Assembly: GCA_963933835.1 (NCBI GenBank)
Contig: CAWVVV010000001.1
Coordinates: 492,588-556,587 of the forward strand
Source: an uncultured Puniceicoccaceae bacterium
GTDB lineage: Bacteria > Verrucomicrobiota > Verrucomicrobiia > Opitutales > Oceanipulchritudinaceae
Length of the DNA stretch: 64,000 bases
Direction: 5' to 3'
This document shows, piece after piece, positions 983 through 60,298 of the stretch. The notes beneath the pieces are model-generated. The model made no database searches. It saw only the letters and a list, made by a program, of their open reading frames with translations, and was not told where the DNA came from. The position numbers were made by a program, and so were the translations under genes. The stretch's first letter is position 1. Each line of letters begins with the position of its first letter.

Positions 983-1606
983 TTAAATACGGCGCCGAGA
1001 GATAACGATAAGATCGCCATCCTCAAGTGGGTGATCGCGGGTCGTGATGTCTCGCGTATCAACGGAAATCTCCACCTGCTCACCGTTTTCGTCAGCGCGG
1101 CGAATGATCACATTTTTGAGATCCCCCAGCGGTTGAGCTCCTCCAGCCATGGATAAAGCCTCGAGCAAATATAGCCGTTCTTCTGCCGGGATCGGAACAC
1201 TCCCTTGTCTCATTACTAGGCCCATAACTTCGACGGTCTGCGCAGAACTGGCATAGATTGTTAAGTCAAGCTGTGGGTCGATGAAGTAATCTCCATCGTA
1301 TAGAGTATAGATGTGCTTTTGTGCGTCAGCCACGGACATTCCAGCGATATTAACCGCCTTAATAAATGGCAGAACCACTGCACCGTCGTTCGAAACTCGC
1401 ATTTGAACATCGGCCTCTTCGCCAATAATTCTAAACAAGACAAAATCCAGCGGCTTAATAACGTACGAGCTGGAAGCCTGATCGCCCAACGAGCCAATTC
1501 GCGAGCTTTGCGAGCTTTGCGAGCTTTGCGAGCTTTGCGAAAAAGACACCAAAGGGGTTATTACGAACACGAAAAAGATGATAAATTGCGACATGGAGCG
1601 ACTCAT
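983..1606 (-). CDS. Polysaccharide biosynthesis/export protein (Wza-like, Poly_export + SLBB)
   Basis: YVIKPLD..., VSNDGAVVLPFI, LLEALSMAGG, LEDGDLIVI motifs; signal peptide. Confidence 0.85.
   Translation of the reverse strand: MSRSMSQFIIFFVFVITPLVSFSQSSQSSQSSQSSRIGSLGDQASSSYVIKPLDFVLFRIIGEEADVQMRVSNDGAVVLPFIKAVNIAGMSVADAQKHIYTLYDGDYFIDPQLDLTIYASSAQTVEVMGLVMRQGSVPIPAEERLYLLEALSMAGGAQPLGDLKNVIIRRADENGEQVEISVDTRDITTRDHPLEDGDLIVISRRRI
1501..1540. repeat. In-frame 9-bp tandem repeat (GCGAGCTTT)x4.4 encoding SQS repeats
   Basis: Read directly; lies just after the signal peptide of the wza-like gene. Confidence 0.95.
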
Positions 1607-1623
1607 ATGCTTCAAATTTAGAC

Positions 1624-57695: not shown

Positions 57696-58571
57696 ATGTC
57701 AGTCCTCGTAGGAAAAGAAACACGCGTCGTCGGCCAAGGTATCACCGGTAATTTCGGTAGCCAGCACGCAAATAAAAACATCGAATACGGCACCAACTAT
57801 GTTGCGGCCGTCACACCTGGAAAAGGCGGCGGAAGCTTCGCCCCAGGTATTCCGATTCTTAATACAGTTAAAGAAGCCGTCACCGAACACGGCGCGAATA
57901 CCAGCGTCATCTTCGTGCCGCCACCGTTCGCTGCCGATGGCATCCTCGAAGCGATCGATGCCGGAATCGAGCTCATCCTTTGCATCACCGAAGGCATTCC
58001 GGTTCGCGACATGGCGATCGTCAAAGACGCCCTCAGGAAGTCGAAGACACGCCTTATCGGGCCGAACTGCCCGGGCATCATGACGCCCGGCGAATGTAAC
58101 ATTGGCATCATGCCGAGCTACATCGCAAAACCAGGACGCGTCGGCGTTGTCAGCCGCTCCGGCACGTTGACATACGAAGCTGTTTACCAGCTCACCGTTC
58201 GCGGACAGGGCCAAAGCACCTGCATCGGCATCGGTGGTGACCCTATCAATGGCACCAGCCACATCGACGCCGTCCGCATGTTCAACGAAGATCCAGATAC
58301 AGATGCCATCATCATGATTGGTGAAATCGGTGGCACTGCAGAAGAAGAAGCTGCTGCCTACATCAAGGACAACGTCACGAAGCCCGTCGCCGCCTTCATC
58401 GCGGGAACAACCGCGCCTCCAGGACGCCGCATGGGCCACGCCGGTGCGATCGTCAGTGGCGGTTCCGGAGACGCTGCTTCCAAGATAGCCGCCCTCGAAG
58501 CCGCCAACATCGCCGTCTCCCCAACACCGAGTGAGATCGCTGATACACTGCTCAAGGTCTGGACCCCGTAG
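57696..58571 (+). CDS. sucD: Succinyl-CoA ligase alpha subunit
   Basis: [27 protein letters not shown]. Confidence 0.98.
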
Positions 58572-58600
58572 TCCAACCAAACACAGCAGTCGTTTGATTT

Positions 58601-58640
58601 AAAAGAAACGCCGCCCTCCGTAATGGAAGGCGGCGTTTTT
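58601..58640. terminator. Terminator after sucD, likely bidirectional
   Basis: AAACGCCGCCCTCC-gtaat-GGAAGGCGGCGTTT-TT with an A-run upstream. Confidence 0.85.
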
Positions 58641-58655
58641 GGTTAAAGATTGATT

Positions 58656-59092
58656 ACCACGAAGAGCACGAAGGACACGAAGAATCACTATCTAAAGGAC
58701 ATAGCGTTTCATACCATCTTTGAGTTTCGATAAATTAAAATTGAGAATGAATCCTAATCGAATACCGGATAATTTCATATAAGTGAGGAGTTGAGCCTCA
58801 TGAATAGGATCAACTTTCTTCACGCTCTTGAGTTCGAGGATTAACTCTCGACCGACCAAGATATCGACTCGATAGCCGCAATCCAAAGTAACACCTTTAT
58901 ATGTAATCGGTAACCCAGCTTCAATCTCATGTTCAATACCACAAAGCTCAAGCTCCCGACTTAAACAGCTTTGATAAGACGACTCAAGAAGCCCGGGCCC
59001 TAACACTCTATGCACCTCAATGGCACAACCAATCACACGACGGGAAATAGGCTCAAAGTTCTTTTCTTCGTGTCCTTCGAGCTCTTCGTGGT
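58656..59092. mobile_element. Inverted-repeat-bounded GxxExxY cassette
   Basis: 29-bp IRs 58656-58684 and 59064-59092 (28/29 identical), each 3x CACGAAGRR; TTA at 58654-56 and 59092-94; interior AT-richer than flanks; mobility is inferred. Confidence 0.65.
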
Positions 59093-59099
59093 TAGCCAT
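58692..59099 (-). CDS. GxxExxY protein (PD-(D/E)xK nuclease superfamily)
   Basis: IG.AIEVH..LGPGLLESSY, YKG, YRVDILV, ILELKSV, HEAQLLTY, G.ILNF. Confidence 0.95.
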   Translation of the reverse strand: MANHEELEGHEEKNFEPISRRVIGCAIEVHRVLGPGLLESSYQSCLSRELELCGIEHEIEAGLPITYKGVTLDCGYRVDILVGRELILELKSVKKVDPIHEAQLLTYMKLSGIRLGFILNFNLSKLKDGMKRYVL

Positions 59100-59110
59100 C
59101 CCTAATTGAG

Positions 59111-60298
59111 CTACCCCAGCAAATCGCGCTCGGGTTCTGTCTCGGCGGCGTAGTCGACGCCGGGGAGGCCGAAACCGAAGAGCTTGAGGAAGTTTTCTTG
59201 GTAGCCGTCGAAGTCGGTGTAGTCGTCGATCGTTTCGGTCGTGACCTTTGGCCAAATTTCGGTGACCGCTGCTTGCACGTCTTCGCGCATTTCCCAATCG
59301 TCAACACGGACGCGGCCCATGTCATCAAATTTCAAATACCCGTCGCCGTAGAGCTGCTCACGAAAGAGGCGATCTATTTGTTGGATACAGTCTTCGTGGA
59401 TATCCATCTTCTTCATGATTTTGAAGAGGATCGAAATATAGAGCGGAACGACCGGAATCGCCGAGCTCGCTTGGGTAACAACAGCCTTGTTCACTGAAAC
59501 GAAGGCACGGCCACGGTTGACCTTTAGACGCGCATCGATCTTCGCAGCGGTTTCGCGGAGGTGGTTCTTCGCGGCACCAATTGTGCCGTGGTGGTAGACG
59601 GGCCAAGTGACTTGAGGTCCAATGTAGTCGTATGCACAGGTCGTCGCGCCTTCGGCCAAAACACCGCCAGCTTCGAGCACATCGATCCAACGCTCCCAGT
59701 CTTCCCCGCCCATGACCTTCGCAGTCTGGAGGATGTCGTCTTCGGTCGCAGGCTCGATCGTGATCGGCGAAACACTCTTTTTGTCTGTATCGAGGTTGTT
59801 CGCGGTAAAAGATTCGCCGACGGGCTTGAGCGAGCTGCGGTAAGTTTCGCCCGAGACCGGATCGGTCCGGCGCGGAGAAGCGAGACTGTAAACAACGAGA
59901 TCAACTTGTCCCATTCCCTCTTTAATTGTCTCAACAACTTTCGCCTTCATCTCATCGGAGAAGGCGTCTCCATTCAAAGACTTCGCGTAGAGACCCGCTG
60001 CCTTCGCCTCTTCTTCTACGGCGACGGAATTATACCAGCCAGCGGAGGCAGGTTTGCCATTCGAGGAGGGGCGCTCGAAGAACACTCCCAGAGTCGAAGC
60101 TCCTGAACCGAAAGCGGCGGTGATCCGCGAAGCCAATCCATAGCCGGTCGATGCGCCGAGAATCAGGACCTTTTTCGGGCCATCCTTGATCGGACCATTC
60201 GATTGCACGTGGGCAATCTGTTCTTTGACGTGAGCAGCACAACCTTCGGGATGTGCCGTGATGCATACGAAGCCGCGGATACGAGGTTTAATAATCAT
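59111..60298 (-). CDS. fabV: Enoyl-ACP reductase / trans-2-enoyl-CoA reductase FabV
   Basis: MIIKPRIRGF.C..AHP.GC, GASTGYGLASRI, YSLASPRR, VMGGEDW, TQASSAIP. Confidence 0.96.
   Translation of the reverse strand: MIIKPRIRGFVCITAHPEGCAAHVKEQIAHVQSNGPIKDGPKKVLILGASTGYGLASRITAAFGSGASTLGVFFERPSSNGKPASAGWYNSVAVEEEAKAAGLYAKSLNGDAFSDEMKAKVVETIKEGMGQVDLVVYSLASPRRTDPVSGETYRSSLKPVGESFTANNLDTDKKSVSPITIEPATEDDILQTAKVMGGEDWERWIDVLEAGGVLAEGATTCAYDYIGPQVTWPVYHHGTIGAAKNHLRETAAKIDARLKVNRGRAFVSVNKAVVTQASSAIPVVPLYISILFKIMKKMDIHEDCIQQIDRLFREQLYGDGYLKFDDMGRVRVDDWEMREDVQAAVTEIWPKVTTETIDDYTDFDGYQENFLKLFGFGLPGVDYAAETEPERDLLG

Follow-up and report, generated by a model that had tools for sequence, protein, structure and literature searches.

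What is a small nuclease-like gene doing between fabV and sucD, packed between two inverted arrays of a short motif? The question is raised by one intergenic block in the stretch of DNA analysed here, 64,000 nucleotides from an uncultured Puniceicoccaceae bacterium (the window, G000:C1:492588-556587, where G000 is the 1.94-Mb source genome; coordinates below are window positions unless a contig is given). The whole block spans 463 bp (58643-59105) and holds a 135-amino-acid (aa) open reading frame (ORF) of the GxxExxY family. We favour the reading, at a probability of about 0.55, that it is a copy of a widespread selfish element, a nuclease gene plus hairpin arms, which moves horizontally.

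The cassette and its arms

Three features make up the cassette:

58643..58684, - strand: downstream (3') arm; its core, 58656-58684, is three 9-nt units of CACGAAG plus RR (+ strand reading), and the inverted repeat reaches outward to 58643
58692..59099, - strand: GxxExxY / PDDEXK_3 ORF, 135 aa, with profile matches, the motif residues and an AlphaFold2 model
59064..59105, - strand: upstream (5') arm, three units with one mismatch (CTCGAAG); its in-frame translation is HEELEGHEE, and the inverted repeat runs past the ATG to 59105

The inverted arms of three CACGAAGRR units with one mismatch, described in a first-pass annotation of this DNA, are well supported: CACGAAGNNCACGAAGNNCACGAAG matches 58658-58682 (+, no mismatches) and 59066-59090 (-, one mismatch) and nowhere else in the window, and this two-match outcome did not arise in any of 100 dinucleotide-shuffled versions of the window. 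The inverted repeat is longer than the 29 nt given in that annotation and extends to 42 nt at 86% (58643-58684 / 59064-59105). Its score, taken as the best repeat between a gene's two flanks, is 54, while 1000 random genome positions gave 23 at the 99th percentile and 45 at most. The GC content of the region (0.39-0.45 over 58500-59100) is 10-20 points below the 0.55-0.60 of sucD and fabV. The earlier view of a discrete cassette of gene plus periodic arms stands, and the cassette lacks synteny at fabV-sucD in three comparable relatives.

Two other parts of that annotation gave way. A TTA on both sides of the core had been taken for a 3-bp target duplication; the TTA does occur on either side, yet the inverted repeat continues through these bases, and 3-nt direct repeats flank three of 70 cassettes where 2.3 are expected. 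Among these 70 cassettes, in which both outermost units could be located, target duplications showed no excess at offsets 0-7 with k = 2-4, except for the self-complementary AT. Elements of the insertion-sequence, miniature inverted-repeat transposable element (MITE) or Correia type have terminal inverted repeats and a target duplication, lie in intergenic space and are co-transcribed with host genes. The cassette resembles such transposons and MITEs in its terminal inverted repeats, its location and its apparent co-transcription, and differs from them in that its arms are periodic, no transposase is recognised in it and a target-site duplication is missing at every offset.

The ORF had also been supposed to borrow its ATG from the host. 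The start is the cassette's own, because relatives at unrelated loci keep a start before the arm and because the inverted repeat here runs past the ATG (59099, 11 nt past the fabV stop, with the upstream arm in frame, MANHEELEGHEE). An in-frame ATG or GTG precedes the first unit by 2-3 codons in L069, L070 and L068 and by seven in the paralogue L003, the arm being read H-E-E or H-E-G, and in a planctomycete clade the ATG comes directly after the arm. Judged by these start positions, whether the arm is translated depends on the clade. As a side observation, arm hairpins probably break assemblies and produce spurious short ORFs (HEGHEE or TKDTK peptides).

The arms do not conserve all of their positions equally. 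Across 72 arm pairs, agreement is found in 1242/1281 columns in which both arms conform to the degenerate motif and in 182/318 inter-unit spacer columns (57%, where shuffling expects 32 +/- 2%), both figures leaning high as the alignments were picked by best score. Spacers are frequently permuted between the two arms of a cassette. The 2 nt outside the first unit, nearly always AC, are inverted-identical in 54 of 70 cassettes. Since motif columns and the AC terminus are conserved and the spacers loose, selection acts less on a perfect duplex than on an array of motif copies that has a defined terminus.

The surroundings of the cassette are as follows:

57696..58571, + strand: sucD (succinate--CoA ligase alpha), convergent neighbour (NF004230, 441.8 bits)
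58606..58638, no strand assigned: G+C-rich hairpin common to both convergent units, 14 pairs with a T-rich tail, terminator-like on the - strand and downstream of the cassette
59111..60298, - strand: fabV (enoyl-acyl carrier protein reductase), co-oriented upstream host gene (NF043048, 623.3 bits)

The block occupies the space from the fabV stop to the hairpin except for 4-5 nt on each side, and 5 nt separate that stop (59111-59113) from the repeat's outer end. Co-transcription of the GxxExxY gene with fabV is plausible because no terminator stands between them and a terminator-like hairpin lies past the cassette. A sigma-70 promoter scan found no site at the locus, using a consensus that may not apply to this organism, and an Rfam scan of the cassette and five repeat regions matched no family.

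Such a position invites the explanation that the cassette intervenes at the RNA level only, its transcript stem being cut by RNase III as in the intervening sequences (IVS) of 23S rRNA so that the ORF is detached, and its protein having no role in spread. The passages of PMC4990558 that describe the Coxiella IVS give the same architecture (428-444 nt with a small ORF and low GC, closed by a terminal stem of 28 bp that has one mismatch and a bulge). Both arms of the cassette pair in its RNA minimum-energy fold (z = -3.66; 0/100 shuffles equally stable), the cassette sits inside the fabV unit ahead of the terminator, six of the seven cassettes in the source genome start 0-25 nt past the stop of a long co-oriented ORF, and the S23p-family genes of that genome are framed in the same way. 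We nevertheless consider this explanation unlikely. Arm mismatches on the sense strand of the 72 pairs carry no excess of G:U, the wobble signature of a sense-RNA stem (36 G:U-type versus 57 A:C-type), and pairing alone would not need a 7-mer motif held across phyla while spacers pair in only 57% of columns. In the clade of the window copy the start codon precedes the arm, so that cutting the stem would decapitate the ORF. Assembled contigs of one RNA run reached parts of sucD and fabV and left the cassette uncovered. The upstream neighbour, co-oriented in 7/7 cases in the source genome, is on the opposite strand in 32 of 81 usable loci (five '+' rows are the ORF itself); with 49 against 32, close to ordinary gene co-orientation, we rejected co-orientation as a rule of the family. 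The gain and loss of cassettes and the families of gene-less hairpins, both described below, would also be left unexplained.

Recurrence across genomes and phyla

The source genome contains seven GxxExxY genes, and all seven are framed by periodic inverted repeats. Their arm motifs differ: CACGAAG in two cassettes, CACGAAT-type in two, and CACGGAT, CGCAGAT and CACAGAG/CACGGAG in one each. Both TIGR02436 four-helix-bundle genes of the genome (the 23S-IVS protein family), L008 at G000:C1:432570-432887 and L009 at G000:C2:34587-34895, likewise lie within periodic inverted repeats, one frame being a 9-nt TGATGAAT-type array and the other made of TTAGGA hexamers.

The framing extends well beyond this genome. 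From the source genome and its relatives, 26 of 35 loci score above the 99th percentile of the null, and the nine below it include contig-end truncations and weak periodic arms. In a species-genome collection, so do 63 of the 79 best homologue loci, which encode proteins 53-73% identical to that of the window and come from at least 14 phyla by record titles; the titles name Verrucomicrobiota, Lentisphaerota, Planctomycetota, Thermodesulfobacteriota, Pseudomonadota, Nitrospirales, Acidobacteriota, Chloroflexota, Bacillota, Omnitrophota, KSB1, Sumerlaeota, Hydrogenedentota and Bipolaricaulota, among others. Cultured carriers named in them include Rhodopirellula baltica, Stieleria tagensis and Mariprofundus sp. 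EBB-1. Planctomycete, Opitutales and other copies have ACCACGAAG..CACGAAG..CACGAAG arms in common, and most of the best homologue loci carry them; the proposal that the flanks of homologues would bear periodic inverted repeats is thus upheld, with the same arm motif. At nine loci or more we found a second architecture, in which a complete hairpin (arm, short loop, arm) stands on either side of the gene.

The gene itself is common and patchily distributed. The GxxExxY family comprises 19,511 representatives at 50% identity (E up to 0.001). TIGR04256 is matched in 22 of 41 genomes (the source genome and its relatives), with one to eight matches each, and of two congeners one has eight matches and the other, at 91% completeness, none. 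On a tree of 113 proteins the phylum labels need 33 changes where the minimum is 13, a count that paralogy can inflate, and the rows nearest to the window protein are two Opitutales copies and one Victivallales copy. Mapped onto the protein tree, the arm motif needs 23 changes against 33-38 in 500 shuffles; the motif hence clusters with the protein clade, as linkage alone would lead one to expect. At the level of sequence, these comparisons show a gene-plus-arms unit that is inherited whole and exchanged whole between distant phyla.

Occupied junctions, empty junctions and gene-less arms

If cassettes move, the same gene boundary should be found in more than one state. We traced the orthologous junctions of three other cassettes of the source genome in five relatives:

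Junction 1: occupied in G000, G001 and G018; empty in G002 and G012; about 590 nt in G006
Junction 2: occupied in G000; empty in G012 and G002; in G001 a gene-less hairpin of CCTAAT/CCTACT hexamers; two loci uninformative
Junction 3: occupied in G000 (CACGAAG arms) and G001 (CACAGAG arms); empty in G012, G018 and G006; one locus uninformative

The occupants of junction 1 belong to different subfamilies with different arm motifs: the protein of G001 is 33% identical to the occupant in the source genome and 61% to another paralogue, and that of G018 is 35% identical to the source-genome occupant. At junction 2 the host genes abut in the empty genomes, and the hairpin of G001 (L160, G001:C493) is gene-less, about 240 nt long and of the hexamer arm type that frames a four-helix-bundle gene in the source genome. 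The two occupant proteins of junction 3 are 62% identical to each other. Cassettes may even supply host signals. At junction 2 in the source genome (L002) the only in-frame starts of the downstream host gene seem to be two GTGs inside the right arm, the second of which appears to align with the ATG of G002, and at junction 1 in G018 (L157) the stop codon of the upstream host gene would lie in the left arm. Comparison of these loci shows cassettes that come and go at gene boundaries and that land, without target duplication, in the short gap separating a stop codon from the start or terminator that follows.

The fabV-sucD site itself is less readily compared. FabV was found in 40 of the 41 genomes, and sucD lies beside fabV in only three of 30 loci fetched, the source genome included. 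The fabV-sucD spacer holds a 257-aa ORF of unknown function in G002 (same genus) and a different ORF in G014, and the 257-aa type also follows fabV in G001. Since other ORFs follow fabV in these three genomes, the cassette is not ancestral at this site. A clean empty fabV-sucD site was found in none of the three comparable relatives at this divergence. We note separately that a conserved ORF of about 240-257 aa lies past fabV in both congeners (L013:347-1120 in G002; L011:2737-3455 in G001) and is missing from the smaller source genome, which has the cassette there.

With junctions of paralogues empty in sister genomes, and with inverted repeats at homologues and other copies of the repeat in hand, the data differ from what was to count against the first-pass annotation, namely a syntenic, vertically inherited gene with no empty sites, no inverted repeats at its homologues and no other repeats. 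That the block is an ordinary vertically inherited small gene with an incidental flanking hairpin, for which the identical cassette in all DNA samples compared might be cited, is contradicted by the empty orthologous junctions and the recurrence of the arms across phyla, and is hardly credible.

A more serious proposal is that the repeats serve the host, as sites for a nucleoid protein or global regulator or as hairpins that stabilise or terminate mRNA, with GxxExxY as a domesticated partner. The passages of PMC2700814 on such repeats list 21 paired opposite-strand sites, in each of which three TCTCCGTS[Y] units stand in tandem (the arm motif CACGGAG in reverse complement), and read them as sites of IHF/HU-type global regulators; some cassettes, moreover, are syntenic across genera, as at junction 1 in G000, G001 and G018. 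The occupants of such shared junctions nonetheless differ in subfamily and in arms. Together with patchy presence (none in one congener), low GC, phylum-mixing trees and the absence of any PADLOC or PHROGs match, this makes a host-serving role improbable.

Arms also occur without a gene. A degenerate-motif census of the source genome returned 222 arrays of at least two units (110 in a Markov control) and 29 of at least three (three in the control). Inspection of the census list showed the gene-less arms to cluster in several hotspots, L149 (G000:C4:169500-178900), L150 (C3:14800-19200), L151, L152 and L153, in which forward arms come in blocks, with blocks of reverse arms behind them, and motif types are mixed; a conserved TTACAGAGCCTAAGC-like tail comes after the right arms. 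Within these hotspots a second repeat, GGCATGAGCCTGCCGAATG-like, recurs, and some arm pairs cross instead of nesting. A solo arm (L154, G000:C1:51863-51890) is an exact 28-nt copy of the cassette arm 58656-58684 and has no inverted partner nearby, and three further two-unit CACGAAG arms of the genome are without a gene. Repeat copies with and without cargo, foreseen in the first-pass annotation, are thus present in the source genome as the seven cassettes, the solo arm at C1:51863 and the hotspots.

Among the 41 genomes, strict three-unit arms occur in 21 of the 22 with the gene and in six of the 19 without it (Fisher p = 2.6e-5, Spearman 0.64, both figures overstated by kinship among the genomes); a reversed-pattern control gave zero in all but four genomes, with a high count in G009. 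G025 alone has 65 three-unit arms, mostly in CACGGAT hairpins, and eight of these hairpins that were fetched (L171-L178) have outer flanks and loop segments in common. The counts show gene-less hairpin derivatives accompanying the cassettes in numbers that follow the presence of the gene.

At G028:C73:118563-120203 we observed nine three-unit arms on one strand, most of them about 110-114 nt apart (eight CACAGATAGCACAGAAA(A/C)CACAGAT, one CACAGAAAG... variant); they flank a GxxExxY gene (119440-119778) on both sides and form a tandem array of hairpin units beside it. A period-9 census also returned a 9-nt tandem repeat, TTTGCGAGC (4-5 copies), at window positions 1496-1540, which we rejected as a coding repeat apparently unrelated to the arms; it lies inside an ORF (983..1615, - strand) and encodes an SQS-repeat peptide past a signal-like N-terminus.

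Gene-less hairpins that share their arms with gene-bearing ones beside them, and have short loops, could be the 'empty alleles' of a homing-type spread, in which the nuclease cuts them and repair with the arms as homology copies the gene in. A junction occupied by a hairpin in one genome can indeed carry a cassette in another, and the absence of a target duplication would fit. Yet the source genome has many hairpins and no two near-identical gene copies, the arms, at only about 27-40 bp, are short for recombination, and the hairpin-gene-hairpin architecture is unlike gene-in-loop homing. We regard homing as quite unlikely.

The nuclease, its array and comparable systems

The 135-aa ORF matches TIGR04256 GxxExxY at 137.9 bits (cut-off 35) and PF13366 PDDEXK_3, its sole Pfam match, at 132.8 bits (cut-off 22). 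It has G36-x-x-E39-x-x-Y42, D79 and E89-x-K91; among 13 aligned paralogues and relatives G36, E39, Y42, K91 and Q103 are invariant, D79 is nearly so, and column 89 is E or D. A search of PDB sequences gave no match at E up to 1, and PADLOC and PHROGs profiles matched no family of anti-phage defence or of phages at E up to 0.01 (zero families each). The AlphaFold2 model (predicted local distance difference test, pLDDT, 90.8) has an alpha-beta fold with restriction-endonuclease-like neighbours. The best Foldseek match is the Cas4 protein SSO0001 (E = 1e-3); VIA-align ranks a Spirosoma restriction-endonuclease-like protein (Z 8.3), Cas4 (7.9), the BpuSI nuclease domain (7.9) and Hjc (6.5) above tRNA-splicing endonucleases (Z 5.2-5.6). 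The protein is thus modelled as a predicted minimal PD-(D/E)xK nuclease whose nearest folds are DNA nucleases. Two matched domains are present in 28 of the best 150 representatives, and in three such proteins (P0001, P0002 and P0003; about 275-295 aa) the second domain is without the D/E-x-K catalytic residues, which hints at a two-domain working unit, possibly nickase-like; fusions with one dead site would predict an asymmetric dimer.

The selfish-element reading would then work as follows. In each arm about three copies of a 7-nt motif (CACGAAG in this cassette), the proposed recognition site, follow one another at a spacing of about 9 nt, and outward the arm ends in a conserved ..AC-CAC terminus. 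The nuclease, probably as a dimer, would recognise these DNA arrays, presented by single-stranded DNA folded into a hairpin or by two duplex arms in synapsis, and would cut at the termini, thereby mobilising or maintaining its own cassette and, in trans, gene-less hairpins. The logic would be that of RAYT with its REPINs. The cassette may ride in the fabV transcription unit, and in the transcript the arms could form a stem of about 29 bp of the 23S-IVS type. That stem might hold expression down or allow the cassette to be detached by RNase III, a side effect or a form of harm reduction, and would not be the means of spread.

Several results weigh against this reading. Movement of the cassette was not seen in the DNA compared. 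In three other DNA runs, contigs span both arms, carry an identical cassette at the same site and give no joint that skips it, and a metagenome scan with the fabV 3' end returned one contig, again with an identical cassette at the same site; as assembled contigs drop rare variants, failure to find cassette-free joints says little. The window copy is only 28-56% identical to seven paralogues of the source genome, and the gene has therefore not copied itself recently within that genome. As for a transfer vehicle, GxxExxY matches occurred in eight of 72,556 plasmid records, and tblastn found none in 50,697 phage records. Matches to known folds are middling (Z no higher than 8.3) and do not identify the nucleic acid that is cut. 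To the linkage and kinship already mentioned must be added the six genomes that carry arms without any GxxExxY match, and G025, whose three GxxExxY genes have CGCAAAG, CGCAGAT and CGCTAAT arms and none CACGGAT, contrary to a strict one-to-one pairing of gene and repeat.

Among known systems the nearest is REPIN/RAYT in logic and the 23S rRNA IVS in architecture. With the REPINs and their REP-associated tyrosine transposases (RAYT; Bertels and Rainey, 2011; PMC3116915) the cassettes share hairpin-forming inverted repeat doublets in extragenic space and a small enzyme gene flanked by its own repeats, a likeness that includes the hairpin-gene-hairpin form seen here. Several repeat groups per genome stand alongside several gene subfamilies, and there are many gene-less copies per gene, with repeat numbers tracking the presence of the gene. 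In contrast, the enzyme here is a PD-(D/E)xK nuclease of about 120 aa and not an HUH/Y1 transposase, the arms are periodic 7-mer arrays and not single repetitive extragenic palindromes (REP), the gene lies inside the hairpin loop in many copies, the unit crosses phyla, and gene and repeat match imperfectly (G025).

The 23S rRNA IVS with an S23p ORF, known from Coxiella and Leptospira, has long been suspected of mobility, with a mobility factor encoded by the ORF, according to the relevant passages of PMC4990558. By the same source it resembles the cassette in its length (about 430-460 nt), in terminal inverted repeats that form a 28-29-bp stem with one mismatch, and in its one small ORF, its GC below that of the host and its sporadic distribution; the periodic frame of the S23p-family genes in the source genome is of the same kind. 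The cassette differs from it in lying in a protein-gene spacer (fabV-sucD) and not in a 23S rRNA helix, in carrying a nuclease-fold protein and not a four-helix bundle, and in having no G:U signal. The 'predicted global regulator binding sites' of Geobacter metallireducens, classes 1-3 (Aklujkar et al., 2009; PMC2700814), are also similar, being opposite-strand pairs at variable distance with three to five tandem 7-9-nt units, and reverse-complementing their class 2 consensus gives CACGGAG(A); the passages of that paper that define them describe regulator sites and make no link to GxxExxY genes or to mobility.

These likenesses allow a broader proposal, which we put forward tentatively and hold as possible at somewhat under even odds. 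GxxExxY cassettes, the S23p cassettes of the 23S rRNA IVS and gene-less periodic hairpins may form one pan-bacterial class of mobile elements, in which inverted motif arrays would be the recognition tracks of an encoded small protein. Insertion would be intergenic and without duplication, would sometimes supply a host stop or start, and in the 23S IVS would have landed in rRNA.

We found no description of a GxxExxY cassette in full-text literature searches, which did not cover most subscription journals, and no function for the family in print; a single table listing PF13366 gives it as 'Unknown' with 'multiple transfers'. Tying GxxExxY to a defined DNA partner, the periodic arms, offers a direct biochemical hypothesis for a very large family. 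If the reading is true, the family would provide a nuclease-based counterpart to REPIN/RAYT and an origin for the long-unexplained intervening sequences of 23S rRNA, and the paired tandem-repeat 'regulator sites' of genome papers could be re-read as the ends of elements.

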